Assembly (NCBI GenBank): GCA_903827265.1
Contig: CAIKHN010000003.1
Coordinates: forward strand, 24,392-88,391
Direction of reading: 5' to 3'
Source: Candidatus Uhrbacteria bacterium
Lineage (GTDB): Bacteria > Patescibacteriota > Patescibacteriia > UBA9934
DNA: 64,000 nucleotides
Shown here piece after piece: positions 16,150 to 63,342 of this stretch (position 1 is its first letter; every line of letters starts with the position of its first letter). Below the pieces are notes generated by a model. It saw only the letters and a program-made list of their open reading frames with translations. It did no database searches and was not told where the DNA came from. The translations under genes were made by a program, and so were the position numbers.

Positions 16150-16296
16150 AACTTCCTCCTTCGGCCCATTTTCGACTCAGATCATCGGAAACTCACTCGA
16201 CGTACACATGAAGTACGCCTCGCGAGCTTTCCTTGACCTTCATCGAAACTGGTCGCGAATGAGAAAGTTCTACTATGTTATAATTCTGTTCGAGTT

Positions 16297-27212: not shown

Positions 27213-27253
27213 AGTTTCATTGTTGCAAAAAGGATCTGTATTCTGCCTTGCGT

Positions 27254-30200
27254 TTAGGGCGTACGCGGCGGAAGAAGGATGGGGCTTACATTTAATAAGC
27301 GATATTGTTCAATTTTCTTCACTTCTCCGTAGCCGTGTTCTTGATAGCGATACGTAGATTTTACCAGGTATCCCATCCTAAGTCCGTTTTGAGCTAGACA
27401 CTCTTCCAAAAACGCTTTATCGATTCGTAGCCACTGGCCGTAAGGCAAAGGCATATCGAAATTACTTCTCTCTTTCAGTCCCTCTATCCAGTCGCCATGC
27501 GTAATTTTCTCTCCGTTTTCATCGCTGTAGACATACTGAAAATCCTGAATTTCGCCTATGGAATCCCGTCTGATTCCTGGAGCGGGCAAGAGTTGAAGCT
27601 GGTAATCTCTGAAGTATTGCCAGAGATTTATGGTCAGATCTCGAGTCCGTGCAACTAGAGGGTAGACCATCAAGTCTTCTATTCGAGTCGGATCTAACCC
27701 AATCGGATATAGGCACGCCGCAGGATTGTCCAAAAAACTCAAAGGATAAGGAGTGTGTATTGGAATCAGGGCAAGACTTGATCTATCTAGTATTAATTCC
27801 GAAACCGCCTCCGCGGTTGGCATATTGGAGCCAACAACTTCGTAAGCAAAACCTATAAGAGAAATTGAATGAGAAGGATCGAGCTTTTCCGCAAGCGCAG
27901 GCATAACCGCGCCCTCAAAGGCCAAAAACGGTTTATCCTGGTTATTTGTGAGAATTGATTCAATTGGGATCTGCAGATCAATTTTAGTTAGATCCGTTTC
28001 CGCCATTTGACCTTCAGCTAGTCTCGGCCACCAGTCTGGAATTCTACCCACTAGTTTTTGCCAAATCCCCAGATCTACTGGCAATGTTGCATATGAGTAT
28101 TCAAGATAGAAATCTTCCGCGATCTTTCCATCCAAATAATACTGGTGGACTACTCTGAGAAACGCCGATCTGTATGCCTCGCTGAGAGATGTAGACATAC
28201 CTGGGATTGATGCCCCGCGTTCTCTTCCCTGGAAATACCCGGCGTCAGCGTTTAAGGAAATCCCGTTTTCTTGGATTAGGATCGATGAAGTGTACGCCCA
28301 TTGTTGAAGAAAACGACCACCGGTTTTTTTATCTATTTCTTTGGCCCGTTCGTGATAAATCGGAGCCAGAAAAGACCTGATGTGTCTATTGAAAAAGTTG
28401 TCAGCCAGAAAGGCGGAAGGCACGGCAGAAACCGCCCCAAAGGCGGGTAAAGCTTCATCGTCAAAATCTTCACCCAGAAGGAATGACAGCTCTACGAGCA
28501 ATTCTTGAATTACAACTGAATTTACACTCAAACTCAGAACGATGTCAGAAAACTTTATGTAAGAAAGCTCATCTCCCTTGCTTAGCGAGAAGGCTCTGAT
28601 CAAGGGTAAGAGGTGAATCGCAACAATGCTCTCAAGACAGATTTGCTTCAGGTTAGTTAAAAAATTTTTGTATAATTCCTCGCGCTTTGAAGAGAAGACG
28701 AATAATTGAGCGATTGCTGTTGCTGTTCGTTCGCGAACTAACGGACTTGGCCACGTCAGCCTTTGTATTAAAAGGTCAAATTCATCCGGTTCCTTCTCAG
28801 CATACTTAGCGTCCCCCCAGATGGGTTTGGCCAACTTAGTCTCAGCCATTAGCGATTCCGCGAAAGTGATTCCCGCCTCGGTGATTGCCACGGCATTTAC
28901 TAGATCCCCAAATAACACAAAGAAATCAACGGCACGCGCTATTGGCACAAAATATCTTAGACCACTGTCCCACCTATTACCTACAGCGATACTCCTTTCA
29001 AAAAATTCTAAATAACGCGTCGGATATTTATCTTGCAGAAACACCCAACGTGCCTCAGCTTTATTCTTATCCGTCCAATATAATTGCCAGCCATTGTCAT
29101 TAGCTTGCGCTCGACAAAGCAATTCGAATGCGCGTCCATTCTCGAATTCGTAGGCCAATGGATAGAGCACATCAAGTAGCTCGCCGCCCAGGTGATTTAG
29201 CTCCGTTTCAGGCACTGCCGCCATGAAACTCCTATAGATTTTTTCTTTATCATCATTCTCCAACCAATGAATAAGCCACCCATGTAAATATGTCTCCCGT
29301 TCCCAGGGGCTGCCGAAGGTTCTTTCTCTCAAGTTCTGCACTAATAGATCAGGAGAAACGCTACTAAAGTCCTCGGTGGAAGCCGGTCGAATGTATGGAG
29401 TCGAAGCATCTTTTTCTGGGTAAGTTATTTCTCCAAAGTAATCCGTAATAATACTCAAAGCTTTAGCAGCCCCTTCTTGTTTCTGTGCAAGGATGCCGAG
29501 CGACTTATATGAATCCTCATCAAGAGCTGTTGTTGCTAGTGCGGTAGATACGTCGGAATCATACGGCAATGACTGAACGATGACTTCGAAGATATCTTCT
29601 GCGTGAAATAAGTTCCCCGAGTCTGCATTTACATAGTAATCCTTATATAGAGCCGATCGATCAGATTTTCCAAAGATTTGAGCAAGATTCAGTGAAAGAT
29701 GATTAGTTTCATCTCCATCTGTATATTCAGTTACATTTTCTACAATCGGTGCAATCGATGCCAGCCAATGATGCATTTTTACTGCTTCAACACCTGCTGA
29801 TCCACAAGCCGAAATAGCATCCAGCACTCCATCTAGGTACATGTCCTTGTGATAGCCGTATCCGAGAAGATTTTTTGCAGAATCTAAAAGTAACTCTTTT
29901 GCACGTTCAGTGTCTCTCTGAATCCTGCAAAGTGCAGCAAGATCAGCGAAAGAGGTAGTCCTTTCTGAAAAATATCCGACTGATCCCTTAAGATTTTTAA
30001 CTTGCGTCTCGATAAATTGGATATGCGCATCGTCCACGAAGACAGGCTCACCCTGCTTAATGGAGAGTTCCAACAAATTAGCTGCATTAAAAAACGGAGT
30101 GCTCAGAATCGATGAGACGTCCCCGGGGGTAAATTGATACGAAGATCCAAGAGCCTTTTTTAGGATCAATAAATCTGAAAGATTTAAGGAAGTCGATGCC

Positions 30201-33166: not shown

Positions 33167-33232
33167 TCATTGCTGTTAATGCAGATGTAGATTATCTCGT
33201 TTTAATGTCTTTGTCTTCTTGATTGTGATTAA

Positions 33233-33787
33233 TTAGAAAGATAGCTCCGTTTGCTTTCCATTCAAGCCTTGCGGGTGATAGACGAATTCCTCGTAGTCAG
33301 TGCTCGAATTCAAGCTATACAAGGCCATAAAATTCGCGTCGTAAGCCCCGTCCAATTTCTTTGAGTACAGGTCTTTCTGTGCCTCGGCAAAGAGCACGGC
33401 AGATTCCTCCGTCTTGAACACTGCTATCTTGGCAAACGTGTTGTTTCCGAATTCGGTGTGCAACTGCTTTCCTAGCGCCGTCATGGACTCATTGTTTAGA
33501 TACTGCTCCTGCACGACGATGGATTTCCAAATATAACCATTCTCCGAGTTGTCCCAGACGACCTCGTAAGGAATTTTTACCTGTGCCACTTCGTGTTTTT
33601 CTTCTGAACTCTCTATCATTCCAACCATGGCTATTGGCAAGAAAAACATAACCATCAAAACAGTGAGAATTGGATGTCTCCAAAACCATGATCCCAATTT
33701 CGCCCGGCAGTAGGGACAGCGTCTCGCCTTTGTATCAACCTCTTTACGGCACGATGAACAGGTCTTCACCTTTGGTGCGTCACTCAT
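33233..33787 (-). CDS. Zinc-ribbon membrane protein (first gene of the island operon)
   Basis: Preferred start is MSDAPKV at 33787; the ORF track extends to 33844. CSSCRKEV...CPYCRAKL zinc ribbon, then TM ILTVLMVMFFLPIAMVGMI, then a 130-aa extracytoplasmic domain. It lies 66 bp upstream of the NTPase on the same strand. Confidence 0.5.
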   Translation of the reverse strand: MSDAPKVKTCSSCRKEVDTKARRCPYCRAKLGSWFWRHPILTVLMVMFFLPIAMVGMIESSEEKHEVAQVKIPYEVVWDNSENGYIWKSIVVQEQYLNNESMTALGKQLHTEFGNNTFAKIAVFKTEESAVLFAEAQKDLYSKKLDGAYDANFMALYSLNSSTDYEEFVYHPQGLNGKQTELSF

Positions 33788-34099
33788 ATTGGCTCGATAA
33801 ATATTTATTAAGATTGAAAGGCGCGCAAAAACAAAAAGCGACACCCGGTGGTGTCTCTACCCAACCCATGCACGGATAGTGCACAGACTGTTTTAACCGG
33901 ATGCCGCTTTATGGGCGCTATCCGGAAATAGGCAAAAAAATGCCCTGTACGGGTTGAGTAGAGACTTCCGAAGTGTATAACAATGATCAAGGTTATTCAA
34001 CATCACGCAACATTTACCAACAGTGGTGTCAAAATTTGCGTGAGTTTACAAAAGAGGAGAAAATTACCGTAATCTAAATAAGAATGCGAATAAGAATCT

Positions 34100-34801
34100 A
34101 TGAGGAATGATGGTGTACGTGACCTGCATCTTGCGGTCGCATGGTCGTGTCGACGATTGGAAAAATTACTTGCGCTTGACCCTAAGTGCAGTGAGGTGAC
34201 TTATTGGTTCGCTCCCGACACGTCGGATGAAAAAGCTCCGCCACTCGGGGATCAAGTATTAGCCTTGAGCTATCTGGAAAACCAACAGGCGCTCGAGATC
34301 GGGCAAGCTGTCTATCGAAATGAGCTCTATAATCGCGTCGGTGCTCCAGAAATGTTCGGCGCGAAATCTGATGGCTATCGCGTGGAAATAGTTTCTAAGA
34401 GCTTCGAGAGAATCTGCAAAGAGTTACGTCCACTCATAGATAAGCTTGGTGTCTACCTTGTTCGCGCTGACCATGATTTTAATGACTTGAAACAGCCGAT
34501 TCTTGTTTTTGAGAATAAAGGCGCGGATTTTTACGTAGAGTTCAGCGGCGAACGAGTATCCATCAAACAACACTCTCGACAATTTGGCCTATTGGCGGCA
34601 TTAAAAGAACAGCGAGGACGTCATCTACCGGAAAAGGAATGTATTGAGGCGGCAAATCATTACGTGACCAAAGGGAAAACATTTATTACGGGCAAAGATA
34701 TTTACTTCACTCTTCGTGACATTAAGAAAAAGTTAAAAGTTGGAAAAAGTTGCGTTTTTCCAATCGAGCTAGAGAATAATCAGTATATTTGGCGCAAGTA
34801 A
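34100..34801 (+). CDS. Hypothetical protein (island cargo)
   Basis: 233 aa, divergently transcribed from the NTPase operon. No recognisable motif. Confidence 0.4.
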   Translation: MRNDGVRDLHLAVAWSCRRLEKLLALDPKCSEVTYWFAPDTSDEKAPPLGDQVLALSYLENQQALEIGQAVYRNELYNRVGAPEMFGAKSDGYRVEIVSKSFERICKELRPLIDKLGVYLVRADHDFNDLKQPILVFENKGADFYVEFSGERVSIKQHSRQFGLLAALKEQRGRHLPEKECIEAANHYVTKGKTFITGKDIYFTLRDIKKKLKVGKSCVFPIELENNQYIWRK

Positions 34802-34859
34802 ATAAAAACTCAACTCTCTCAACAAAACCTTCCACAATCGTAAATAGAGCCAACATGAA

Positions 34860-35132
34860 ATGCTCTCGGTGCAAAACATCGTGAGCATTTTTATGTCTGA
34901 TACATATACGACCACCAACTTCTATCTCGCCGCATTCCTCTGTGCATCAGGGGTTGTTTTTGTGTCGGGAGAGCGGTTGGCGGATACACGCCAGACAGCT
35001 TTTCACTTCGAAGAATCAATGAAACGCAAAGAGCTTTCAAGTGCGTTTCTTGTTGGTGAAGAAGTGGAAGTGAATGTTCATGCGTTTATTGCGCAGCTCA
35101 AACGTTTGAAATCAATCATTCACGACGGATAG
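34860..35132 (+). CDS. Small hypothetical protein (island cargo)
   Basis: 90 aa. An alternative start is MSDTYTT at 34893. Confidence 0.3.
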   Translation: MLSVQNIVSIFMSDTYTTTNFYLAAFLCASGVVFVSGERLADTRQTAFHFEESMKRKELSSAFLVGEEVEVNVHAFIAQLKRLKSIIHDG

Positions 35133-35440
35133 CTCGAATAATACTGGCCGATCAGGGTGCGCGAACCACTGTGCCCCGGCTGGATGCGACTTAAATCAGT
35201 GGATACATGAACCCGCGCCGATCCCCGCGTTATCCCGGGATGCGTCATAGGCAGTAAGGGCATGAACGTCACGAAGCGCTGATATGCCAAGGCGCACGTG
35301 CGTAAACGAAGTTAGCTCTACCGGGCGCTTCGATAGCAGGCATTGCAGGACGTCGGAGAGAAATCCGATCAACGTCCGAAGTATTCGCGTGATACCGCTT
35401 TATTCCCCATTTTGCGTCTCGGCAGTAAGGCAGAAAGAAT

Positions 35441-35830
35441 ATGAAAGACAATCGATTCCAAAAGATCATCTCGGACTACTTAGGACAATTGATCGGTACG
35501 AACGAAGAGGAAGCTTGGAACGTTCGTATGAACGGAAAACGGGCGCAAGTCACCATCCGTGGGCCTACGGGAATCTTGAAGAAAACCATCTCTCATCCCG
35601 GCTCACTTCTAAAGAAAAACTTTCACGATGAGCTAAAAAAGATAGGGAATGTTCAAAAAAAGGCCAATGTCATTTCATACCCGTTAATACAGCGGATTAA
35701 AGCGTTTCGGTTGGTAAAGCTGACCAGAAAACGCGGGAAAAGACAGTCATTAAAGTACGCAATAAAAAAACAGAGTGAGGAGACGGAAAGTAACAGGACA
35801 CGTGCACGTTTTCGAAATCAAAAGATTTAA
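35441..35830 (+). CDS. Small basic hypothetical protein (island cargo)
   Basis: 129 aa, Lys/Arg-rich C-terminus. Confidence 0.3.
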   Translation: MKDNRFQKIISDYLGQLIGTNEEEAWNVRMNGKRAQVTIRGPTGILKKTISHPGSLLKKNFHDELKKIGNVQKKANVISYPLIQRIKAFRLVKLTRKRGKRQSLKYAIKKQSEETESNRTRARFRNQKI

Positions 35831-35849
35831 AATCATAACAAGTAAAAAT

Positions 35850-36245
35850 ATGCATTCAGAACATCGAGAGCCCACAAAAGAAGAGGTGAGTGTAATAGAA
35901 AAGATCGACCTCGATTTGTGCGGAAGGGCTTTGGCAGGCGCTCTTTGGTTTCATGCCTACGATCAAGAGACATTGGTGCTGGATAAGGATGGTCTGGAAT
36001 GGTTGGTGTGGGAGCTTCTTGATGAACTCAGTCTTTCCGGCTTCATGTACCAAACAGTTTCTACCTTTGCAGAAAATAGCAAAATAAAACCTGTGGAATG
36101 TGCTGAGTGCAAAAAAGAAAATGGAGATGAAGAAGACGGAGATGGAATCAACTCACCATGCCCTAGCTGCGAACAGCCTCTGACCGCAGAGGCGGAATTA
36201 CCGCCTCTACCGCCACCGGGTTGTTCTGAGAAATCTGATTTTTAA
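35850..36245 (+). CDS. Small zinc-ribbon protein, paralog 1 (AYDQE-LxLDxxGL family)
   Basis: MHSEHREP start. WFHAYDQETLVLDKDGLEWLV core. C-terminal CAECKK...CPSCEQ. Confidence 0.45.
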   Translation: MHSEHREPTKEEVSVIEKIDLDLCGRALAGALWFHAYDQETLVLDKDGLEWLVWELLDELSLSGFMYQTVSTFAENSKIKPVECAECKKENGDEEDGDGINSPCPSCEQPLTAEAELPPLPPPGCSEKSDF

Positions 36246-36249
36246 ACCT

Positions 36250-36621
36250 ATGCACATCACGGATCCGAAAGGCTCGGAAGAATGCTCGGCCTGTTACGGA
36301 ACGGGGATCATTCCTAAATCGTCCGCAACCTCTGACCACTCGACCGAACCAATTTCGCACATCTCAGATTACATGCAGGAAATGCGCTCGATCTTCCTAA
36401 ACACAAAGAATAGGACGGTTTTTCAGCGAGTAGATTTAGCCGAAGATCTTTGGATCATTGCCTATGACCAAGAAGATTTAATTCTAGATGACGAAGGGCT
36501 CAAGGATCTCTTAAACATTTTCCTGTTCGGCTCTCATTATTACGATTCAATTCGTGACGCAATTAGTAAGTATATCGATAAATACGTTATGAACCGCGAT
36601 GCAGAAGAAGTGAACGAGTAA
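36250..36621 (+). CDS. Small zinc-ribbon protein, paralog 2 (AYDQE-LxLDxxGL family)
   Basis: N-terminal CSACYGTG. WIIAYDQEDLILDDEGLKDLL core homologous to the preceding gene. Confidence 0.45.
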   Translation: MHITDPKGSEECSACYGTGIIPKSSATSDHSTEPISHISDYMQEMRSIFLNTKNRTVFQRVDLAEDLWIIAYDQEDLILDDEGLKDLLNIFLFGSHYYDSIRDAISKYIDKYVMNRDAEEVNE

Positions 36622-36778
36622 ACAAAAGTTGCCTGTGCATCTCCCTAACGAAATCAAGACAGAAATCCGATTGCTGTTCTCCCGCCCCGGAGAGCAGCTT
36701 TCGGATTCTGACGTTGAGGAGATTGCACAGAACCTTTTGTCATTCGCCCTTCATCTATCACCTGCAAAGGGATAGAAT

Positions 36779-38416
36779 ATGACCATGAAGTATTTCATCT
36801 ATTGTCGCCGATCAAGTGACCGGGAAGACAAACAAACGCTCTCCATCGATGCTCAAATTCGTGAGCTAAAGGTGCTCGCAGAAAAAGATCATCTAGAAAT
36901 CGTTGACACCATCGTGGAATCACAATCCGCCTACAAAACAGGGCGGCCATTTTTCAATTCAATGCTTGAGCGCATCGAGCTTGGACAAGCAGACGGGATC
37001 ATCGTATGGCAACCAAATCGTCTTGCCCGTAATTCCTTAGATGGAGGGCGGCTGATCTACATGATGGATCAAGGGTCATTGAAAGAGATCCGCACCATGT
37101 CCAAGCTCTTCACGCGATCCGGTAACGACAAGTTCTTTTTGCAAATCGAATTTGGCATGGCAAAGAAGTCATCCGATGACACTTCGGATTACATGAAGCG
37201 TGATGCTCAATCCAAACTTCTCAAAGGCGAATGGACGGGTATGGCTCCCGTTGGTTATTTGAACGTTGATGCGCAAGGAAAGATTGCGGGCAACTTTTAT
37301 GATCACGACAAGCAGACACAACTATTAAAGCTTGGCAGGCCATTGCGCCGAATTGAAAAAGACCCGGTGCTAGCGCCCCTTATACGTCAGTTTTTTGATT
37401 ACTATCTTGCAGAGTACCGAACCTTGAAAGAGGCGGCGGCTTTCATGAATTCTCTCGGGGTTAAAAGTATCCGCCGTCATGGTCGCTATTCCATCAGCAT
37501 GGTGGAGAGAATTTTAAAGAATCCTTTTTACACCGGGCAGCTTCGGTATGAGGGGGAGCTTTTTGCTGGTGTACATGACCCCATCATTAGCACGAAGGAA
37601 TTTGAATTGATTTCGCAACGGTTTAACGGACACTCTCACCCAAAAGTAGTGAGTTACGATTTTGTGTATCGAGGGCTCGTGCGATGCGCTGAATGCGGTT
37701 GTTCCGTGGTGGGAGTCCACAAGGTAAAGCCTTCCGGTAAGGAGTACGAATACTACACGTGTAGTAAGCGCAAAGGTGAATGCGGCCAGAGACCATCAAA
37801 ACCTGCAGACATCGATATTCAGGTCGAAGAGCGTCTTCGTGCCATTCAAATAGATGAACGCGTGTGGGAGCTGTGCAAGAAGCTCTTACACCTTCATTAC
37901 GCGGAGCAAGTGGATAGCCAAGTCCTCATTCGTGAAAAGTGGCAAAAGGATCTCGGCAATGTCGATAAACGTACAAATGCCTTGTTGGAACTCTATATCT
38001 CGGGTTTGCTCGATAAAGAGGACTACACTAAGAAGAAAAACGAGTTGTTGTCTGAAAAGATGGCTCTGACAGAGAAGCTTAGTGACAGCGGGCAAGCGAC
38101 GACCAATTGGCTGCAGCAGACCGAAGACTTCTTTGGGTTGGCTCATGCCGCGTATGAGATATTTAAGAGCCCTCAGACGACGTTGGCACGCAAGAAACAG
38201 ATTGTGCAGGACATCGGTTGGAACTTAGAGATTTCCGAGGGAAAGCTTAATTGGCAATACAAAAAGCCGTTTGATTTTCTTGTAGAGCGACAACCAGCGA
38301 AAGTTTCGGTTGGAACTCGTAAATATGGCTTAGCTAAAAAGAAAAACACCTCTCTCGAAAGAGAAGTGGTTTTCTGGCGGGACGGACGGGACTCGAACCC
38401 GCAACCTCTGCCGTGA
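36779..38416 (+). CDS. Large serine recombinase (integrase)
   Basis: 545 aa. Resolvase catalytic domain YCRRSSDREDKQTLSIDAQ, then VWQPNRLARN, then a recombinase domain, then zinc ribbon CAECGCSV...YYTCSKRKGECGQ, then coiled coil. The 3' end runs 42 nt into tRNA-Asp. Confidence 0.8.
   Translation: MTMKYFIYCRRSSDREDKQTLSIDAQIRELKVLAEKDHLEIVDTIVESQSAYKTGRPFFNSMLERIELGQADGIIVWQPNRLARNSLDGGRLIYMMDQGSLKEIRTMSKLFTRSGNDKFFLQIEFGMAKKSSDDTSDYMKRDAQSKLLKGEWTGMAPVGYLNVDAQGKIAGNFYDHDKQTQLLKLGRPLRRIEKDPVLAPLIRQFFDYYLAEYRTLKEAAAFMNSLGVKSIRRHGRYSISMVERILKNPFYTGQLRYEGELFAGVHDPIISTKEFELISQRFNGHSHPKVVSYDFVYRGLVRCAECGCSVVGVHKVKPSGKEYEYYTCSKRKGECGQRPSKPADIDIQVEERLRAIQIDERVWELCKKLLHLHYAEQVDSQVLIREKWQKDLGNVDKRTNALLELYISGLLDKEDYTKKKNELLSEKMALTEKLSDSGQATTNWLQQTEDFFGLAHAAYEIFKSPQTTLARKKQIVQDIGWNLEISEGKLNWQYKKPFDFLVERQPAKVSVGTRKYGLAKKKNTSLEREVVFWRDGRDSNPQPLP
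38370..38384 (+). repeat. Proximal att direct repeat overlapping the tRNA-Asp 3' end
   Basis: ttttctggcgggacg is identical to 26601-26615. It covers the 3' terminal 10 nt of the tRNA (including CCA) plus 5 nt of flank. Confidence 0.6.
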
Positions 38417-38451
38417 CAGGGCAGCGCTCTAACCAGTTGAGCTACCGACCC
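38375..38451 (-). tRNA. tRNA-Asp (anticodon GTC)
   Basis: Reverse complement GGGTCGGTAGCTCAACTGGTTAGAGCGCTGCCCTGTCACGGCAGAGGTTGCGGGTTCGAGTCCCGTCCGTCCCGCCA. It has a cloverleaf, a CTGTCAC anticodon loop and an encoded CCA. It is close to E. coli tRNA-Asp. Confidence 0.85.
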
Positions 38452-54984: not shown

Positions 54985-55801
54985 ACCTCTCCCCCTTACG
55001 AAGGGGGAGTCGGATGGGGTCCTTGAACTAATTCTTGGAAGGGGGGGTGCGGGAGGGACGAAAACGTTGGGAGAGTATGGGTGTTTGATTTTAAAAGGGG
55101 TGTTTTGTTAACGCAACTCATTTGCATTAAGGAATCGCTGGTTGGTTTTGGTGACGTGCAAGGAAGCTGATGGCGCTGTACGCAATTACCGATGATGTAT
55201 TTTTGAGTTTGAAGCGATCATTTCTGAATTTCCGATTCAGATCGCGTTGTGACGCGAAGTTTAAAAGGGTCAAAAAACGACAGTAGTGTTTCAAAATGAG
55301 GATACCGACCCGGACGATTCACCTCCCCCCGACCCCCTCCTTCGTAAGGAGGGGGAGATTCTTAGTGAATCAGGGGTCCCTGTTGATAGATTCTTGACGC
55401 TTGCGTCTGCTTTTGGTTCCCTTTGCTCACGAAAACCCCTTGAGGGGACCCTACGGAACGGTTGTGACGCCTCCTCCTCGTTGCAATTTGTCACCATAGG
55501 GTCTCCTGAGGGGGTTTTATTTTGGCCATTTTCGGCTTGCTGCGTCGCAAATTCGCGCGACGTACCGAGAAGTACGCCTTGCGAATTATTTCTCTAATCT
55601 TAATAAACACTTGACTTTTTTGGTGTTTTTTGGTATGATGATCTGTCCTTGAATAAAGGATTCCGAGTGGAAAGGGCCTGTATGTAGTAGCTTTCTGTTC
55701 TTCAGTAGTTTGGTGTTCTGGGTGCTCCCTCCAGCATCCGGTTGACGCCAAACTTCTGAAGCGCAGAATCCTCTGCGCCAGCGCTCACCCTCGGAGTAAC
55801 C

Positions 55802-56719
55802 ATGCTCGCCCTTTTCCTCTCGACCGCTCTCGCCGATGACGCCGCCGTCACCACCCCCGATCCGACCGACCCCACGGCGCAGACCACGGCCCTCTCGGGC
55901 CCGGCCTTGACATGGTACGTCCAGAAGGCGGAGGAGAAGCCGGCGTGTCCGGCCCCGGCGCCCGTTGTTAAGCACCACAAGCGCAAGCACGTGGTGGCCT
56001 CGACTCCCGTGGCCCCGGTGTCCGACCCGGTCCTGCCCGTCGTGAAGCCCGATCCGATCCCTCCGGTTCCCGTGACCCCCGCGGTCACGCCGGCCACCGA
56101 GAACGACGACAGCGACCTCGCCGTCAAGTTCTCGGAGGACTGGGAAGAACTCGATCACTTCGGTGACAACGAGAAGGAGGAGGCCTCCGAGCCCCCGCCG
56201 GCCGAGCGCGAAGAACCCACGTTCTCCCCGAACCGAGCCCAGCTCGGCATCGGGGCGATGGTGGTCATCGCGCCGCCGCTGCCTTCGGCGCAAGCCTGGG
56301 CCGCGGACCAGCTCAATGCCTTCGGGCGGTACGAGTTCGGCGTCAGCAACGGCTTCTCGGTGGGGTTCGAAGCGATGGCTGGCTACGGCATCAGCGCGGA
56401 CGCCACGAGCTTCCGCGCCGCCCCCGTCCTCGCCTGGGACATCGGACCCCGCACCGGCCTCACGGTCGGCGCAGGGCCTTCGGTCCTGTGCGAGCGTGCT
56501 TTCACCGCTGGGCCTCTCTGCTCGGTCACCCGCACGGGTGGCTTCGCCGAGATGGGCATCTCCGTCCAGGCGGCCGGCCCCGTCGGCCTCGAGTTCCTCC
56601 TCGGTGGCGGCTACGACGTCATCGAAAGCGTGAAAGATGGACCCGGCGCGATCGGCAACGGCTACGCGGGGATGCGGCTCTTCTTCGGGAGGGTCGGCAC
56701 CGGCGAAACCGTGGAGTGA
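55802..56719 (+). CDS. Secreted protein with Pro-rich linker and beta-barrel-like C-terminal domain (high-GC segment)
   Basis: Signal peptide MLALFLSTALA. TTGACT-18-TATGAT promoter at 55611-55640 and a GGAG SD. The longer minus-strand ORF is low-complexity antisense. Confidence 0.5.
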   Translation: MLALFLSTALADDAAVTTPDPTDPTAQTTALSGPALTWYVQKAEEKPACPAPAPVVKHHKRKHVVASTPVAPVSDPVLPVVKPDPIPPVPVTPAVTPATENDDSDLAVKFSEDWEELDHFGDNEKEEASEPPPAEREEPTFSPNRAQLGIGAMVVIAPPLPSAQAWAADQLNAFGRYEFGVSNGFSVGFEAMAGYGISADATSFRAAPVLAWDIGPRTGLTVGAGPSVLCERAFTAGPLCSVTRTGGFAEMGISVQAAGPVGLEFLLGGGYDVIESVKDGPGAIGNGYAGMRLFFGRVGTGETVE

Positions 56720-56791
56720 CGCAGTACGGTTCGGCTGGGAGGGAAGAGGGTAAAACCTCGACTCTCCCGGCCGAACGCCCAACCCTACACA

Positions 56792-56820
56792 TTGACATTT
56801 TCCCAAATTTCTGCTATAGT
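56792..56820 (+). promoter_or_regulatory. Consensus sigma70 promoter TTGACA-17-TATAGT (copy 1), followed by a 172-nt conserved leader
   Basis: Exact -35 and -10 hexamers with a 17-nt spacer. It is duplicated at 57681-57709. Confidence 0.6.
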
Positions 56821-56992
56821 ATTTTGTTCACAATTGATGCCTTTTCAAGTCCAGTCCATGCAAGCAGTGAAGCGAAATCTTCACTTCTGTCATGGTCTGG
56901 GTCTTACTCCCGACGCCGCTTAATTCTGAGCGCGTGAGGGGTGTCCCTCGATCAACGTTCTCGTCCGAAACCCCAAGGCCATAGGAGCCATC

Positions 56993-57571
56993 ATGTCCAA
57001 GATCGTCCCGTTCTTCCTCCTCGTCCTCGCCACCGCCTGCACGACCTACACCGACAACCAGGATCAGCCCGGGTTCCAGGACAAGGTCGAGGGCGCGGGG
57101 ATCGTGCCCCCCGACTTCGGCTTCAAGCCCTACGACGACGGCATGTTCCTCTGGTCCAGCCAGAGCGCCCCGGACATCGCGAACCCGAACCAGGTTCTCG
57201 GGACCCGCGGTGCCGATCGCGCCCGCAACTGGGTGTGGGATCGCACGAACGTCAGCATGTTCCCCCTCCTCGAAGGGAGCATGGCGGTGGCCTTCGGTGG
57301 CCAGCTCGCGTTCGACAACACCTACCTCTTCACCTTCGCCGCGGACTACGCGGTGCCGGGTGAGGACGAGGGGTGGGCGATCGACAACGAGAGCACCGAG
57401 GAACAGGAGTACGTCTTCTACCGCTCCGACGAGTGCGGTTACCCGGTGGTGGACATCTGCCTCCACGTCGACAAGGACGGCAAGCCCGGTCCCGACGACT
57501 GCGACGGCATGTACGTCGCCCCCGACCCCTGCCCCAACGGGTACGTCGAGGAGGAAGACACCGGCGAGTGA
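56993..57571 (+). CDS. Lipoprotein (variable-body family, copy 1)
   Basis: MSKIVPFFLLVLATAC lipobox, AGGAG SD, high GC, Cys-rich C-terminus. Confidence 0.6.
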   Translation: MSKIVPFFLLVLATACTTYTDNQDQPGFQDKVEGAGIVPPDFGFKPYDDGMFLWSSQSAPDIANPNQVLGTRGADRARNWVWDRTNVSMFPLLEGSMAVAFGGQLAFDNTYLFTFAADYAVPGEDEGWAIDNESTEEQEYVFYRSDECGYPVVDICLHVDKDGKPGPDDCDGMYVAPDPCPNGYVEEEDTGE

Positions 57572-57680
57572 TCGCCCGGTCGCGTGACCGATTCACGCAC
57601 CTTACGTCCCGGCATTCTTCCAACACACGGTTGGTGAATGTCCGGGGCGTTTGCATTTTGGAAAAACAGCAAGAAACATA

Positions 57681-57709
57681 TTGACATTTCCCCAAATTTC
57701 TGCTATAGT
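57681..57709 (+). promoter_or_regulatory. Consensus sigma70 promoter TTGACA-17-TATAGT (copy 2)
   Basis: Identical hexamers and spacing to copy 1, followed by a 95%-identical leader. Confidence 0.6.
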
Positions 57710-57881
57710 ACTTTGTTCACAACTGATGCCTTTTCAAGTCCAGTCCATACAAGCAGTGAAGCGAAATCTTCACTTCTGTCATGGTCTGGGTTTCACTCCC
57801 GACGTCGCTTAATTCTGAGCGCGTGAGGGGTGTCCCTCGATCAACGTTCTCGTCCGAAACCCCAAGGCCATAGGAGCCATC

Positions 57882-58583
57882 ATGTCCCAGAACCTCGTCC
57901 CGTTCTTCCTCCTCGTCCTCGCCACCGCCTGCTCCATCGACACCGTGCCGCCGACCACCGGTAGCAATGCCGGCGAATCCCAGTACACCTGGGGCACGCC
58001 CGGCACCAGCACCGGCAACAACTCGTCCTCGGACGAGGACACCGGCGAGGCGGCCGACACCGCGGACACCTCCGACACCGGTGACAGCGCCGAGGTGATC
58101 GACACCGCGGACACGGCCGACATCGACACCGGTGTCGAGGCCATCACGGCCACCGTTTACATCTGGCCGAAGGCCAAGTGGAACGAGTCCGTCTCCATGT
58201 CGGGGTGCCCGACCGTGTCCTTCCTCACCCCCGCGAACATCAGCGAGGGCGAAGGGTTCGACGGAACCATCGCCGACACGGATAGCAGCTGCGGCTACGT
58301 CCAGGCCACGATCACCTACATCCCCGGCCAGGTCATCACGACCGAAGCCAAGTGGAATGATGGCGTCCGCGACCGGTTCCTCGCTGAGAAGGGCAACGTG
58401 GTCAACTCGTTGTCCACCGCGGTCCTCATCGGCTACAGCAACGGCTGTCTCGCCGAGTTGGCAATCGACTCCACGGGAACGGACACCGCGGAGGGCAGTG
58501 CCTACTGGCACAGCAACTGGGACAGCTCGGGTGGGGAGCTCTACCTCCACACCCCGACCGACACCAGCGACTGTTCGTTCTAG
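57882..58583 (+). CDS. Lipoprotein (variable-body family, copy 2) with DTADTxDTGD repeats
   Basis: MSQNLVPFFLLVLATAC shares its signal peptide with copy 1. The mature domain is unrelated. Confidence 0.6.
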   Translation: MSQNLVPFFLLVLATACSIDTVPPTTGSNAGESQYTWGTPGTSTGNNSSSDEDTGEAADTADTSDTGDSAEVIDTADTADIDTGVEAITATVYIWPKAKWNESVSMSGCPTVSFLTPANISEGEGFDGTIADTDSSCGYVQATITYIPGQVITTEAKWNDGVRDRFLAEKGNVVNSLSTAVLIGYSNGCLAELAIDSTGTDTAEGSAYWHSNWDSSGGELYLHTPTDTSDCSF

Positions 58584-58928
58584 TCCAAGCCTTCCGCGGC
58601 ACGCGCGGTCGGCTCGCTCACACCTCATCTGGCTTCGGCTGGGTGAGGTGTTCGCATTTGAGAGCACTCGTTCTCTTTTATTTCGAGCAAGTGCATAATT
58701 TTCGACCAGTTTCGGTGCGCGACGAAGGCGGGAGCGTCAAGACGTACGTTGCGGTACGTCGTCGATCACGCCGAGGACGCAAGCCGAAAGTGGGCAAAAT
58801 TATGCGCTTGCTTCTTTACTTTTCCCCAATTTTCCGCTAATATTCCTTGTCCCTCAAGTGGGGGAATGACACACTGTCATTAGGCCACCTGGCCTCACGT
58901 TCCTGAAACCTTCCCGTTCGGAGTTCCC

Positions 58929-61253
58929 ATGAACCGCTCCTTCGTTCTCACGCTTCTCGTTTCCTTCGGCTGTGCGGATCCCGTCGGCAAGTGCACGCAA
59001 CGCAACGACGACGGAAGCATGTCCATCGTGGCGGAGTGCGTCAGCAGCAATCGCTCCCTGATCGTCGACACCGGCGACACGGGCGACTCCGGAACCATCG
59101 ACAGCACCGACTCGGATTCGGGCGGTGACAGCGATTCGGTTCCGGACACCGCCGACACCGGCGATACTGCGGATACGTCCGACACCGCTGTCATCGAAAC
59201 CGGCGACTCGGATACCGACACCGCGGACACGTCTGACACCGGCGACACCGGCGACACCGCGGACATCATCGATGTGGACGGCGACGGCTTCGCGGCCGAC
59301 GTCGACTGCGACGATACGGATGCCGGAATCAACCCCGATGCCGTGGAAATGTGCGACAACGTCGACAACAACTGCGACGGCGTCATCGACAATGATGCCG
59401 CGGATCGGACGACGTACTACGTCGATGCCGACAGCGATGGCTACGGCGATGTCTCCCTCAGCGTGTTGTCGTGCGACCCGGTTCCGGGTTCCGTTCTCGA
59501 CGGGACGGACTGCGACGATAGCGACTCGACCGTTTATCCGTATGCCGTTGAAGATTGCACGGACACCGTCGATCTCAACTGCGATGGCTCCGTCGGCGCG
59601 TCTGATCTGGACGGCGATGGAACGATCGCCTGCGAGGATTGCGACGACGTCGATGCGTCCGCGTATCCCGGTAACACGGAAACGTGCGATGGTGTCGACA
59701 ACGACTGCGACAAAACCGTCGACAACGATGCTTCGGACGCGCTCATCTGGTACGCCGACAGCGACGGTGACAGCTACGGCGATGCATCTGTGACCGACGT
59801 TGCGTGTTCGGCCTCGGCCGGGTACGTGGCGGACAACGCGGATTGCAACGACACTCGCGCCGATGTGAATCCTGGCGAGACGGAGCTGTGCGATGGAAGC
59901 GCCGTGGACGAGGACTGCAACGGTCTCGTGAACGACGCGGATCCGGGCATGGATCCGTCCGGGCTGTTCTACCTCTACGAGGACATGGACGGCGACGGGT
60001 ACGGCGACGTGGCGACCGAAGCGCAGTACTGTGAGTCGCCCGATTCCTCGTGGATCGGCGATAGCTCGGACTGCGACGACGCGGATGCCGGAATCAACCC
60101 CGGTGCCGTCGAGTGGTGCGACGGTGTGGATGACGACTGTGACGGCGCGGTTGACGAAAGCGGATCCGCGGGCGAAAGCACGTGGTACGCCGACGTGGAC
60201 AGCGACGGCTACGGCGATGTGTCGAGCTTCGAGAGCGCGTGCGATCAGCCGATCGGCTTCGTCGCCGACAGTGCGGACTGCGATGACGGGGACGCCTCGG
60301 CGTATCCCGGCGCCGCGGAGATCGTGGCGGACGGCATCGACCAGGACTGTGACGGAAGCGACCTCGCCAATCCGGATGCGGATAGCGATGGGTACGACGA
60401 CGTCATCTACGGCGGTACGGACTGCAACGACTCGGATGCGAGTGTCAGCCCCGGCGTCATCGAGTCCTGCGACAGCATCGACAATGATTGCGACGGGGAC
60501 GTCGACGAAAGCGGATCCGCGGGCGAAAGCACGTGGTACGCCGACGTGGACAGCGACGGCTATGGTGACGTGATGTCTTCGGAAGACGCCTGTGATCAGC
60601 CGATCGGCACCGTGAGCGACAGCTCGGACTGCGACGACACGGATACGACGGTGTACCCCGGCGCCGCGGAAATTGTGGCGGACGGCATCGACCAGGACTG
60701 CGACGGCGCGGACAGCACGCTGCCGGACAGCGATGGCGATGGCGACGCGGACGTCACCGACTGCAACGACGCCGACGCCACGGTGTATACCGGGGCAACG
60801 GAAGTTGAGGGCGACGGGATCGATAATGATTGCGACGGTGTCGAGCTGGTGTACGACGAGGACTTCGGGACCACGACCGGCCCCTGTACGGTGGGGAGCT
60901 TCGTCCGTTCGGACGGTGGTTCCATTCATCAGATGGGATCGTGCGTGATCCTCATCCAGGAAGGTGGAAGCCTCACGGCTCCGAGCGTTTCGGACGACGT
61001 CACCCTCACGGGGCTGACGGTCGGACAGACGTACACCTTCCAGTGGGATGTGGAGAACCAGTTCTCGGCAACGGTGACGATTGTCGCAGACGTGAACCGT
61101 GGAGCCCCTGACACGGTCACGATCCTCCGTGGAGGATCCGATGTCCTCGAAGTGACGTGGGCTGCGACGAGCACGTCCACCACCGCCCGCGTCTGGACCA
61201 CTGGCACGAGTTACTACGACGGAATGCTGGATGGCTTTACGGTCACCCGGTGA
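58929..61253 (+). CDS. Lipoprotein with about 10 MopE-type putative metal-binding repeats (CDGxDNDCDG...DE)
   Basis: 774 aa. LLVSFGC lipobox, DTGDTGD tracts, and repeats such as DCDDTDAGINPDAVEMCDNVDNNCDGVIDND and DADSDGYGD. GC is about 67%. The antisense 691-aa ORF is rejected as low-complexity. Confidence 0.65.
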   Translation: MNRSFVLTLLVSFGCADPVGKCTQRNDDGSMSIVAECVSSNRSLIVDTGDTGDSGTIDSTDSDSGGDSDSVPDTADTGDTADTSDTAVIETGDSDTDTADTSDTGDTGDTADIIDVDGDGFAADVDCDDTDAGINPDAVEMCDNVDNNCDGVIDNDAADRTTYYVDADSDGYGDVSLSVLSCDPVPGSVLDGTDCDDSDSTVYPYAVEDCTDTVDLNCDGSVGASDLDGDGTIACEDCDDVDASAYPGNTETCDGVDNDCDKTVDNDASDALIWYADSDGDSYGDASVTDVACSASAGYVADNADCNDTRADVNPGETELCDGSAVDEDCNGLVNDADPGMDPSGLFYLYEDMDGDGYGDVATEAQYCESPDSSWIGDSSDCDDADAGINPGAVEWCDGVDDDCDGAVDESGSAGESTWYADVDSDGYGDVSSFESACDQPIGFVADSADCDDGDASAYPGAAEIVADGIDQDCDGSDLANPDADSDGYDDVIYGGTDCNDSDASVSPGVIESCDSIDNDCDGDVDESGSAGESTWYADVDSDGYGDVMSSEDACDQPIGTVSDSSDCDDTDTTVYPGAAEIVADGIDQDCDGADSTLPDSDGDGDADVTDCNDADATVYTGATEVEGDGIDNDCDGVELVYDEDFGTTTGPCTVGSFVRSDGGSIHQMGSCVILIQEGGSLTAPSVSDDVTLTGLTVGQTYTFQWDVENQFSATVTIVADVNRGAPDTVTILRGGSDVLEVTWAATSTSTTARVWTTGTSYYDGMLDGFTVTR

Positions 61254-61322: not shown

Positions 61323-62855
61323 ATGATCCCGAATTTCCGTTCGTTATATCAGGCGTCTGAAGAGCAAACGCGTCTTGCATTCTTTGGTTTTACTGCGCTT
61401 CTTGCGCTTGGGTTCCTTGGAACGATTTTCTTTTCTCCAACGCTGGTTGTCGCGACAGTTCTCGGTGTTCTTGCTGTCGCATTCGCGTTTGCTCGTCCAA
61501 CGTGGGCATTGTGTGTGTTTGCCGTGTACCTTCCGTTCGAACCATTTTTGTTAAAGTGGGTTGCGGATGATGTGTATGTATTTGCACGATACGGGTCAGA
61601 GCTTGTGGTGTATCTCTTGCTTGCGGTGGTGTGTTGGCGAATGCTGACGGGAACCATCGTGTTTAAACGCACGCCACTTGATGTTGCATTTTGTGTGGTG
61701 GTGTTTCTTGCGCTTGTGTCTGTTGTGATGAACGCCGTGTCTCCGTGGGTTGCACTGTTGGGGTTGCGCCAGATATTCCGATTTGTTTTGCTTTTCTTTA
61801 TTGTTGTTTACCTCGCACCATCAAAAAATATTGTTCGAAAACTGCTGATCACCATGAGTATTGTTGTTGCGATTCAAGCAGGACTCGGCTATGCACAGCG
61901 TGTGATTGGAGAACCGCTTGATTCATTCTTGTTGCCGTCGGCGCAACGCACGCTTGGCGGACTGCAGCTGACGTCTGGAACAACAGAATTTTGGGATCCT
62001 GGTCAGCGGGTGTTTGGGACGCTAGGAAGGTACGATCAGTTGGGAACATTCATGGCGTTCTTTCTTGTGCTTCTTGTGGCGTTTTTGTATGAGCGATCGC
62101 TCTCGCCGTCAGAAGAATTACCGGCGTGGGCTATTCTCCTTTTCTCGCTTCCTGTTGTTGGTCTTGCATACTCGCGCTCTGCTTGGTTTGGCTTTGCGCT
62201 CGCATTTTTCTTTATTGCACTCATCATCAAGCGCGATAAACGTGTGCTCGCGGCGTCAGTTGCAGGTGGAATATTCCTTGTGGGCTATTTAATTGTTTCT
62301 GGACTTGCGGTGAATCAACTTCAAGATTCCGCGAATCAAACATTTGCGAATCGTTTCTTTGAAGCGTTCTCTGTTGCACGATGGCAAGGTGAATATTTTG
62401 GTCTTGGGCGCGTGTATTGGATGGCGCAAACCGTGTGGACTGTTGTTCCGTCGTCTCCGCTTTTTGGTCATGGACCAGGAACGTATGGCGGGGGAGCGGT
62501 TGCTGCGTTAGGGAATACAAAATTATACGATGAACTTGGCTTGCCGTTTGGTGTGTACGGCACCGAAGGATATATCGACAACAATTGGTTTAGCATGTGG
62601 GGCGAGCTTGGAACGGTTGGGCTTGGGGCGTATCTTGTGATGTTCGTGACACTCTTTTCGGCATGTATGCGAATATACCGTGAGTCGAAAGATCCTGAAG
62701 TTCGCGCACTCGCGCTTGGGGTTGCTGCGGCAATGCTCGCGGTGTCCGTCAATGCACTTCTCGCAACGTATCTTGAAGCGCGAACTCTTGCGCCGTATTT
62801 GTGGATGACAGGTGGTATGGTAGTCGCATTCGGAAAGAAAGAGGGGATTGTTTAG
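61323..62855 (+). CDS. O-antigen ligase/polymerase-like (Wzy/WaaL family) polytopic membrane protein
   Basis: 510 aa, at least 10 TMs with a large periplasmic loop. GC is native (about 50%). Confidence 0.5.
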   Translation: MIPNFRSLYQASEEQTRLAFFGFTALLALGFLGTIFFSPTLVVATVLGVLAVAFAFARPTWALCVFAVYLPFEPFLLKWVADDVYVFARYGSELVVYLLLAVVCWRMLTGTIVFKRTPLDVAFCVVVFLALVSVVMNAVSPWVALLGLRQIFRFVLLFFIVVYLAPSKNIVRKLLITMSIVVAIQAGLGYAQRVIGEPLDSFLLPSAQRTLGGLQLTSGTTEFWDPGQRVFGTLGRYDQLGTFMAFFLVLLVAFLYERSLSPSEELPAWAILLFSLPVVGLAYSRSAWFGFALAFFFIALIIKRDKRVLAASVAGGIFLVGYLIVSGLAVNQLQDSANQTFANRFFEAFSVARWQGEYFGLGRVYWMAQTVWTVVPSSPLFGHGPGTYGGGAVAALGNTKLYDELGLPFGVYGTEGYIDNNWFSMWGELGTVGLGAYLVMFVTLFSACMRIYRESKDPEVRALALGVAAAMLAVSVNALLATYLEARTLAPYLWMTGGMVVAFGKKEGIV

Positions 62856-62877
62856 ATTTTGTCTTCGCCCCTTCGTT

Positions 62878-62915
62878 ATTGCGAGGAAGGTAATCCCGAC
62901 GAAGCAATCTAGGTG
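62878..62915 (+). repeat. 38-bp direct repeat, copy 1, flanking the GIY-YIG gene
   Basis: attgcgaggaaggtaatcccgacgaagcaatctaggtg is identical to 63278-63315. The repeat has an internal palindrome (attgc...gcaat). Confidence 0.7.
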
Positions 62916-62916
62916 T

Positions 62917-63210
62917 ATGGATGATCGACAATTTTTTGTATATATTCTTTCGAATGTTTCAAATTCGGTTTTGTATATCGGAGTGACAAATAATCTTCCA
63001 AGGCGAATCGAGGAACATCGATCGGGTTTTGTAGAGGGTTTTACTAAAAAGTATCATTGCCATAAGTTAGTCTATTACGAGGTCCTCGAAACAGCGTATG
63101 ATGCTATCAGTCGAGAAAAGCAATTAAAGGGAGGATCGAGAAAGAAAAAAGAAGCGCTTATTGTATCGCTGAATCCGACCTGGAAGGACCTTGTGAGTGA
63201 TTTAATCTAG
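62917..63210 (+). CDS. GIY-YIG nuclease family protein
   Basis: 97 aa. FFVYILSNVSNSVLYIGVTNNLPRRIEEHR is the GIY-YIG core. The ORF track starts at 62848, but ATG 62917 follows the repeat. Confidence 0.7.
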   Translation: MDDRQFFVYILSNVSNSVLYIGVTNNLPRRIEEHRSGFVEGFTKKYHCHKLVYYEVLETAYDAISREKQLKGGSRKKKEALIVSLNPTWKDLVSDLI

Positions 63211-63277
63211 ATTGCTTCGTCGAACGATTACGTTCTTCTCGCAAAGACTGAGTTAAAGATTGATCAGATCTTCAGTC

Positions 63278-63315
63278 ATTGCGAGGAAGGTAATCCCGAC
63301 GAAGCAATCTAGGTG
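63278..63315 (+). repeat. 38-bp direct repeat, copy 2
   Basis: Perfect copy of 62878-62915. A degenerate inverted copy lies at 63207-63245 and overlaps the GIY-YIG stop codon. Confidence 0.7.
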
Positions 63316-63342
63316 ATACGAGAACAATAAAGGGAGGCTAAT

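Follow-up and report, generated by a model that had tools for sequence, protein, structure and literature searches.

How two adjacent genes can encode unrelated mature proteins behind almost identical promoters, leaders and signal peptides is the question raised by a small gene island in a 64,000-nucleotide stretch of DNA from Candidatus Uhrbacteria bacterium, an uncultivated inhabitant of groundwater (contig CAIKHN010000003.1, positions 24,392 to 88,391), hereafter called the window. The two genes are A (gene 1) and B (gene 2), whose modules in the window are termed W_A and W_B, and positions are window coordinates unless a contig is named. The explanation put forward here, which as a whole is considered probable, is that the 5' module of gene 1 was copied onto gene 2, and that related lineages retain such control modules while they swap or rapidly change the protein bodies behind them.

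The two modules are direct repeats on the plus strand, located at 56787-57040 (copy A) and 57676-57932 (copy B). Each extends from just 5' of a near-consensus promoter through the leader and the Shine-Dalgarno (SD) sequence to the Cys codon of the lipobox, at which copy B is fused to the gene-2 body. A preliminary description of the locus had reported a duplicated module of about 260 bp, and the present comparison agrees with it: the copies are 95-96% identical, with 95.3% identity over 257 columns in blastn (E = 1e-116) and 245 identical positions among 254 ungapped columns plus one 3-nt indel in MAFFT. In the latter alignment, identity is 96% in the promoter and leader and 98% in the signal peptide, and collapses to nothing at the Cys codon. 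The downstream coding parts are indeed unrelated, as had been claimed; BLASTP similarity between the two proteins is confined to the signal peptide, with none between the mature parts, and the bodies of gene 1 and gene 2 form two separate families in eight lineages, without a cross-family match at E <= 1e-3. Two test segments of the module occur exactly twice each in the window and never in shuffles of it, and no further module repeats or silent cassettes were found in the 64 kb, while the modules of relatives bring the total to 14. The repeat is not an assembly artefact, because the independent 67-kb assembly contig L020 reproduces both copies with only three differences from the window in 12,678 nt. 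Two short-read contigs (L010 and L011) end within copy A, as is typical of repeats.

Each copy carries a promoter-like, TG-extended TTGACA-17-TATAGT that agrees with the consensus at 11 of 12 positions, at 56792-56820 in A and 57681-57709 in B, as the preliminary description had read them. Five such sigma-70-type sites with 17-nt spacing, predicted from sequence, occur in the region against 1.4 expected. The 172 nt given earlier for the leader are, in each copy, those lying between the -10 hexamer and the ATG, and the other leader parts named at that time also recur in both: the hairpins AGTGAAG-CGAAAT-CTTCACT and GAGGG-GTGT-CCCTC (the latter at 56936-56949 and 57825-57838) and the SD sequence AGGAG, five nt before the ATG at 56983-56987 and 57872-57876. 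Gene A (56993-57571, plus strand) encodes a 192-aa protein with a signal peptide at 56993-57040, and gene B (57882-58583, plus strand) a 233-aa protein with a signal peptide at 57882-57932, a D/T-rich linker and a variable C-terminal domain; their GC contents at third codon positions (GC3) are 0.93 and 0.92. The signal peptides, MSKIVPFFLLVLATAC and MSQNLVPFFLLVLATAC, comprise 16 or 17 codons ending in LATAC, with the lipobox seen by inspection as MSKIVPFFLLVLATA and MSQNLVPFFLLVLATA directly before the Cys. With the n-region, h-region and lipobox of a signal peptidase II substrate, both proteins are predicted bacterial lipoproteins, and a hydrophobic stretch ending in [AG]C is present in all 14 homologues. 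An AlphaFold2 model of protein A, built on a 3-sequence alignment, was unusable (predicted local distance difference test score, 39.6). Several other readings of this region were discarded. A small leader open reading frame (ORF; 28 codons in W_A, across the first hairpin) lacks its ATG in most modules and is shifted in frame by loop differences of 1-3 nt. N-terminal extension of the lipoproteins is ruled out by 56993 and 57882 being the first start codons after an in-frame stop. Slipped-strand phase variation was discarded because homopolymers do not exceed 5 nt and the spacer measures 17 nt wherever a -10 hexamer can be recognised.

Related loci were recovered from public assemblies by pattern scans, HMMER searches with protein A, a profile search with orthologues of orf305 (the gene preceding A) and contig look-ups. 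The exhaustive HMMER search returned 3 matches among 1.84 billion representatives, a 20-mer scan of a whole-genome collection one true relative and five chance matches, and a metagenome scan one additional lineage. Besides the window (W), seven lineages are distinguished: S2 (contigs L006/L009), S3 (L007/L008; contig named Hain-H41), S4 (L012-14), S5 (L015), S6 (L016), S7 (L018) and S8 (L019). Gene order is constant wherever the contigs reach, with a PDZ protease and Wzz encoded upstream, followed by an orf305-like gene, gene 1, gene 2, a MopE protein gene and a Wzy-like gene. By their orf305 proteins, the lineages fall into {W, S2}, {S3, S6} and {S4, S8, S7}. In W and its closest relative S2, the flanks share 89% nucleotide identity, and the orf305 proteins are 83% identical in the matched 59% of the protein and 58% identical in a full-length BLASTP alignment.

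Several features of the relatives were recorded in passing. Contig L006 (CAYROW010000023.1) is titled 'uncultured Gammaproteobacteria bacterium', yet it is syntenic with the window and 82-89% identical to it; the label was rejected on account of FtsZ relatives from Patescibacteria/Uhrbacteria at 77-80% identity, and is probably a binning or labelling error. In L012, a low-GC two-gene insert (3590-4040) lies between gene 2 and the module of the following gene, a feature of this one lineage; its second product looks by eye like a RelE/ParE-type toxin, and the insert suggests that intergenic regions of the island accept insertions. Four lineages (L016 4470-4510, L012 1385-1420, L018 2415-2450 and L019 1735-1775) have a palindrome that overlaps the -35 of the gene-1 module and reads ATGATTGAT-N4-ATCAATCAT or nearly so; absent from the window copies, it may represent an operator.

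The gene-1 and gene-2 modules share a common 5' layout. All 14 upstream regions contain ATTGACA and a 17-nt spacer whose end reads TGCTATAGT or nearly so. They also share a box that closely follows the -10 (the +1 box, TAGTCAAGATTTCACA in DNA and GTTCACA in the window, or UCAAGAUUUCACA or GUUCACA as RNA) and a hairpin designated H1. H1 is a 46-51-nt imperfect hairpin of 18 pairs with internal loops, corresponding to roughly two helical turns. It lies at 56851-56900 in leader A (CCAG-u-CCAUG-ca-AG-c-AGUGAAG-cgaaau-CUUCACU-u-CU-gu-CAUGG-u-CUGG), where a covariance-model match of 80.3 bits, pair counts and RNAalifold agree on it, and at 57740-57789 in leader B (76.6 bits, with one A.C mismatch relative to copy A). 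A covariance model made from six copies and run over 107 kb gave 14 plus-strand matches, each 5' of gene 1 or gene 2, and none elsewhere; viral contigs yielded no H1 match. Covariation analysis, which the preliminary description had proposed for the leader, gave a positive answer. In the 12 best matches, 98.6% of cells hold standard pairs, four pairs are changed on both sides (15 cells), and one pair shows GC, AU, GU and UA; none of 500 shuffles reaches the observed pairing or covariation score, and slid controls are 36-50% paired. The helix is predicted independently by RNAalifold, and the type II hairpins (S4_m1, S7_m1 and S8_m1) add the compensatory states AAUGAA/UUCAUU, CAUGAG/CUCAUG and UCAG/CUGA. 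Six G.U against two A.C cells favour formation of H1 on the sense RNA strand. Across this small sample of related sequences, H1 thus has the character of a conserved structured RNA element whose pairs appear to be kept by compensatory changes.

A second hairpin, H2, can form directly after H1 in all modules, and the CUGG strand takes part both in H2 and in the closure of H1 at its base. In leader A, H2 occupies 56895-56914 (GUC(U)GGG-ucuuacu-CCCGAC), and its variants are CCUGGG/CCCAGG, CCUGAG/CUCAGG, CCCGG/CCGGG and CCUGG/CCAGG. Beyond this point the leaders diverge. Two more hairpins in leader A (GCCGCUUAAUUCUGAGCGC; GAGGG-gugu-CCCUC; 56915-56949) are specific to its subtype and absent from short leaders, in which H2 is followed almost immediately by the SD sequence, and only about the first 100 nt of the window leader can be regarded as the conserved core, since the remainder differs between subtypes. 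The earlier suggestion of a cis-regulatory RNA is partly supported for the structured core, with H1 in 14 modules of eight lineages and compensatory variants in H2, and not for the 3' half of the leader, which is not conserved elsewhere. Since H1 comprises roughly two turns of imperfect double-stranded RNA (dsRNA) close to the 5' end, with an apical stem that hardly changes and terminal loops free to vary in sequence and length (3-6 nt), a role of H1/H2 within the mRNA is favoured, whether as a 5' stabiliser, a processing site for a dsRNA nuclease or a binding site for a shared regulator.

A more specific role for the leader, as a riboswitch or attenuator that senses a ligand or signal and in which the base of H1 and H2 are mutually exclusive conformers switching lipoprotein expression, is considered unlikely. 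In 14/14 modules the CUGG strand has two possible partners, the 5' CCAG at the base of H1 and the downstream CCAGG-like strand of H2, and minimum-free-energy folds are evenly divided, 7 modules forming H2 and 7 the H1 base. Moreover, a change of CUGG to CUGA in S7_m1 is matched on both partners (UCAG and CUCAGG), CCGG in S7_m2 is matched in H2 (CCGGG), and the window leader folds more stably than its own shuffles (z = -3.1). Such three-strand covariation, however, comes from only one or two sequences. As in riboswitches and other Rfam leaders, a conserved structured element in the 5' untranslated region (UTR) accompanies functionally related genes, possibly with alternative pairings, but the layout is a simple one of two hairpins. 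A multi-helix junction holding conserved unpaired nucleotides is absent, conservation falls on bases within stems, the terminal loop varies, and an expression platform is not readily recognised: no intrinsic terminator was found in the leader, H2 is followed by no U-tract, and the predicted unpaired probability of the GGAG ranges from 0.03 to 0.87 among modules without a common sequestration pattern. Rfam 15 at the gathering threshold detects only tmRNA and one tRNA in the whole window, and at E <= 10 it returns chance-level matches only for 55400-59100. The riboswitch and thermometer named in the preliminary description hence receive no specific support, and its proposed Rfam scan of the leader turned up nothing relevant at either threshold. 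What is supported is a conserved leader RNA motif without an Rfam match.

The palindrome of H1 might instead act in DNA, either as the operator of a dimeric repressor downstream of the transcription start or as the core site of a site-specific recombinase, which would cut out and reshuffle units in programmed antigenic variation of the Mycoplasma Vpma/Vsp kind or in an integron-like manner. Its arms, AGTGAAG and CTTCACT, are nearly invariant across lineages, resembling inverted binding arms around a 5-6-bp spacer, and the recombination sites of Mycoplasma vpma and vsp lie in conserved 5' UTRs (PMC2268961). Against this, neither the sequence nor the length (3-6 nt) of the spacer is constant, even when the two sites within a single genome are compared, and such variation rules out strand exchange as well as a dimer of fixed geometry. 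The complementarity, moreover, reaches about 20 bp in each arm and includes G.U wobbles and compensatory changes. All the genes are in direct orientation, each with its own promoter, and the 64-kb window contains no silent cassettes or other repeats of the module. Pfam detects no recombinase in the island or its flanks, a few short ORFs lying outside the scan, and the sole recombinase found in the window, a large serine recombinase (36779-38416), is 18 kb away beside tRNA-Asp. A DNA-level function is accordingly rated quite improbable. A CRP/FNR-type operator reading of GTGA...TCAC was also discarded, as its spacing is wrong and variable.

The near-identity of W_A and W_B can be placed among the relatives. 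Only in the window lineage, among the eight, are the gene-1 and gene-2 modules near-identical (~95%). Direct comparison in S2 (L006) and S3 (L007) gives about 70-80%, and other lineages have gene-1 and gene-2 leaders of visibly different subtypes with different signal peptides. S2 gene 1 carries a window-type module (96% identity in promoter and leader, 82% in the signal peptide), whereas S2 gene 2 carries a short module of type Ic with its own signal peptide, MHRSLFVSFTLLASAC; S3 and S6 are arranged likewise. By parsimony, the copy probably ran from gene 1 to gene 2 and the window gene-2 module is the derived one, because the gene-2 copies of S2, S3 and S6 bear the Ic leader and their own signal peptide. 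With one edge 5 nt upstream of the -35 hexamer and the other at the Cys codon, the copied tract measures about 257 bp; beyond it, W_B reads SID, as does S2_B. These features identify what appears to be a gene-conversion-like copy of the 5' module alone rather than a gene duplication: in the window lineage, a gene-1 tract would have replaced the ancestral gene-2 module, and the 95-96% identical 5' ends of two unrelated mature proteins would follow from this event. A plain recent tandem duplication of the whole gene followed by ordinary divergence, suggested by the adjacency, co-orientation and similar size of A and B and by the clearly ancient paralogy of gene-1 and gene-2 modules, is highly improbable, given mature parts that are dissimilar and belong to two families each conserved at its own position in 7-8 lineages, an identity that falls from 96-98% to nothing at the Cys codon, and a different module at the orthologous gene-2 loci of the closest relatives; the scenario named earlier as refuting the module, recent gene duplication with artefactual divergence, is rejected on these grounds.

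Reassortment of bodies behind the modules is apparent from the distribution of body types. Gene-1 bodies fall into type alpha, found in W, S4 and S7 (58-69% identity) and, more distantly, in S5; type beta, in S2, S3 and S8; and type gamma, in S6, so that sister lineages differ in body type. The alpha body of W is 62% identical to that of the distant S4 and has no detectable similarity to that of its sister S2. The gene-2 bodies are all homologous, at 24-56% identity (31% between W and S2). Leader type Ia is paired with alpha, beta and gene-2 bodies, type Ib with beta, gamma and gene-2 bodies, and type II with alpha and beta bodies; one leader type thus precedes different body families across lineages, and bodies have therefore been reassorted behind conserved modules. 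Two terminator-like hairpins follow gene A (57578-57650) and are homologous to post-gene hairpins of other lineages; they resemble those after S2 gene 2 and S4 gene 1, not those after S2 gene 1, which suggests that a body and its terminator move together. At a finer scale, the three differences between the window and L020 (57159, 57440 and 58497) are all nonsynonymous and in mature parts (S56N and Y150H in A, S206G in B), a placement with a chance of about 8e-4, and contig L021 has two further differences, both synonymous, in B. The preliminary description had envisaged a cassette system for exchanging surface lipoprotein bodies. At the population level this is borne out by the joining of one leader type to different body families between lineages. 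A machine for switching within a genome is not, with a full promoter for each gene, a single orientation, and neither silent copies nor a nearby recombinase. Body exchange behind fixed expression and export modules is accordingly supported as population-level recombination rather than programmed switching, for want of a recombinase, silent cassette or invertible arrangement.

Taken together, each island gene may be transcribed as a separate unit, in which a strong promoter of the sigma-70 type and a long, structured 5' UTR precede the signal peptide and the high-GC3 body, and a terminator-like hairpin follows. The A/B modules are members of a family present in at least eight lineages and defined by the common promoter, the +1 box, H1 and then H2. 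It is proposed that the conserved 5' modules and the similar terminators serve as homology arms, through which bodies are exchanged or replaced between paralogues and strains with retention of the expression and export signals. Copying and swapping would proceed by homologous recombination, as gene conversion within a genome and as allelic replacement between strains, and selection at the cell surface would drive the diversity of the bodies. Within the mRNA, H1 and H2 would co-regulate these variable surface proteins through stabilisation, processing by a dsRNA nuclease or a common regulator.

Some observations weigh against this explanation. The promoter and leader of W_A and W_B differ by 3.9%, equal to the divergence between W_A and its orthologue S2_A, and the copy is therefore not very recent, and its donor was possibly an allele of another strain. 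The alpha and beta bodies of gene 1 are weakly linked via S5 (E ~1e-7), so that a single family, diverged to an extreme, could account for part of the 'replacement'. The covariation derives from 14 related modules, several compensatory states may each stem from one event, and the alignment behind the H1 pair counts was fitted to the model. The almost invariant sequence of the apical stem also fits a sequence-specific DNA site. Finally, the start of transcription is a prediction from sequence alone, as are a function of H1/H2 at the RNA level and the proposed stabilisation or binding of a regulator.

A compositional contrast sets the island apart. Between 55.8 and 61.25 kb, coding GC is 64-70% and GC3 0.80-0.93, as against a GC3 of 0.40-0.53 in the non-island genes tested (0.46-0.53 without an inserted GIY-YIG gene), and the promoters and leaders between island genes have 48% GC. 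The GC3 contrast recurs in S3 (L007 321-5816), and the codon bias is therefore long-lasting, the lineages concerned having an orf305 protein identity of only 23-35%. No high-GC donor of the island emerged from an exhaustive search, and candidate causes are GC-biased gene conversion, an unsampled donor pool and selection on codon usage. A more far-reaching proposal, put forward tentatively and regarded as possible but doubtful, is that H1/H2 is a new lineage-specific two-state cis-regulatory RNA, read by a dedicated protein or nuclease, which coordinates expression in a recombination hot-spot island of hypervariable surface lipoproteins for host or phage interaction in an episymbiotic Patescibacterium; the modules and terminators would be portable homology arms by which lineages trade bodies, and the high GC3 (0.8-0.93 versus about 0.5 in the genome) a by-product of this recombination via GC-biased gene conversion.

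The same composition has a consequence for annotation. In L020, which represents the same strain, the segment 4264-9607 (equivalent to window ~55586-60929, minus strand) has all island genes called on the antisense strand, as products of 406, 212, 303 and 691 aa, long spurious ORFs typical of high-GC DNA. An exact-protein look-up of A found no record, very likely because of such antisense calling in the island. Wrong-strand gene calls in public assemblies thus leave island proteins largely out of the databases, where the family is under-represented.

The island (55.6-61.3 kb) consists of four co-oriented plus-strand genes for secreted proteins or lipoproteins, namely orf305, A, B and gene C, each with its own promoter-like site upstream and a strong hairpin downstream. 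All four have long, conserved and structured 5' UTRs, of three different types. orf305 (55802-56719; GC3 0.87) encodes a signal peptide, a variable Pro-rich linker and a conserved Gly-rich C-terminal domain, and has no Pfam match. Its promoter-like site (55611-55639, plus strand) is TTGACT-17-TATGAT with a TG extension, and its own leader of about 160 nt (55640-55801) is conserved in L007 and L012, with a long-range helix, AGTTTGGTG ... CGCCAAACT, common to them. The terminator-like hairpin T0 follows the gene (56729-56776, plus strand; -39.5 kcal/mol; ~90% identity to L007 and L009). Gene C (58929-61253, plus strand) encodes a large secreted or lipo-protein of 774 aa with nine MopE-type, putatively metal-binding repeats (PF11617, E = 4e-81; 267 bits against a cutoff of 27), a match found in C only and not in A or B. 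Its promoter (TTTACT-17-TAATAT) and short leader with three small hairpins lie at 58815-58928 on the plus strand and form a distinct class. The preliminary description had taken the region at about 58795 for a third, degraded copy of the module, a view that alignment of the three upstream regions overturns: likeness to A and B is limited to the promoter, including its spacer (75% over 36 nt; 84% over 25 nt, E = 0.07), and the leader belongs to this different class, which is itself conserved with compensatory changes in six lineages, instead of being a decayed A/B module.

The window is chromosomal, encoding HflX, FtsA, FtsZ, pyruvate kinase, IF3, tmRNA, giant surface proteins and a T4SS-pilin-like protein. 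The nearest named relatives of its FtsZ are from 'Patescibacteria group' and 'Candidatus Uhrbacteria', at 77-80% identity. A Pfam scan of the neighbours (49.4-63.2 kb, a few short ORFs lying outside it) identified AI-2E transporter, PDZ, Wzz, Wzy and GIY-YIG proteins and left the remainder without a match. Putative mobile or repetitive DNA was also observed. The stretch 27000-38450, of lower GC (40-47%), ends at the serine recombinase gene, which abuts tRNA-Asp (38375-38451, minus strand), and has the appearance of an integrated element; it bears no relation to the lipoprotein island. A GIY-YIG nuclease gene (62848-63341) is flanked by 41-nt direct repeats (62875-62915 and 63275-63315) and is an insertion relative to S3, where window positions 62849 and 63342 are brought together at 7449 and 7451 of L007. 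A family of intergenic elements, imperfect palindromes of about 120-135 nt similar to miniature inverted-repeat transposable elements or repetitive extragenic palindromes, has fold energies of -49 to -69 kcal/mol; its members occur in the window at 13565-13685, 16145-16280 and 58680-58815, with a half copy at 55510-55590, and in L007 at 3388-3495, 9955-10072 and 12471-12591. They share the ends TTTTxGGCCAxTTTCG ... CGAAAxTGGxCAAAAT, and the element at 58680-58815 is missing from the orthologous site in L006.

Patescibacteria (also known as the candidate phyla radiation, CPR) are thought to live attached to host cells, and to our knowledge almost nothing is known of their surface molecules or of the variation and regulation of these. 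The present locus supplies a concrete set of fast-evolving, separately promoted predicted lipoproteins, and represents a natural example in which expression and export modules are kept and protein bodies exchanged. Its leader RNA motif lends itself to searches of other genomes and to tests by compensatory mutation.

Among known systems, stem-loops in 5' UTRs that stabilise an mRNA or are processed include the hairpins of Escherichia coli ompA and the RNase III sites in rnc/pnp and in phage T7 early mRNAs. H1 resembles them in its predicted structure, as a long imperfect helix near the 5' end of mRNAs for abundant envelope proteins, with the structure kept and the loop variable. It differs in having no sequence relationship with them and an unusually invariant apical stem, which suggests sequence-specific recognition. 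An integron cassette array was discarded as a model, as no integrase was found, the units have their own promoters and the palindrome lies 5' of each ORF. The same applies to a diversity-generating retroelement: the 64-kb window contains no direct repeat with A or B of the template/variable repeat (TR/VR) kind, and no reverse transcriptase is present among the 28 window ORFs scanned with Pfam, a subset of those in the window. In Borrelia, loci for host-interacting lipoproteins have reportedly been diversified by natural selection and recombination, and lipoprotein paralogues have conserved upstream regions and leader peptides. These loci are mostly plasmid-borne, and vls/vlp use silent cassettes and an expression site; the present locus is instead a small chromosomal island of autonomous genes with a different leader RNA motif.

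The closest counterparts are the variable lipoprotein loci of Mycoplasma, which include, besides vpma of M. agalactiae and vsp of M. bovis, vlp of M. hyorhinis and vsa of M. pulmonis. In vpma and vsp, family members have 5' UTRs and signal-peptide regions in common, and their mature parts are different and hold repeats; a single promoter serves otherwise silent genes in inverted orientations, with an adjacent Xer-type tyrosine recombinase acting on sites in the 5' UTR (PMC2268961). The island shares with them the clustering of lipoprotein genes, the conserved 5' UTR and signal peptide and the differing mature parts, and the bacteria themselves have in common small genomes and a dependence on surface contact with a host. 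Conservation of the 5' UTR and signal peptide, as in Vpma/Vsp, is found between W_A and W_B, the other lineages sharing only the promoter, the +1 box and H1/H2. In place of a single promoter with silent genes, a TTGACA-17-TATAGT-like promoter precedes each gene in 14/14 modules; the genes are co-oriented, with no recombinase nearby and no homopolymer tract in the promoter, and variation is seen between lineages rather than as switching within a genome. The locus resembles the Mycoplasma loci in outcome, not in mechanism.

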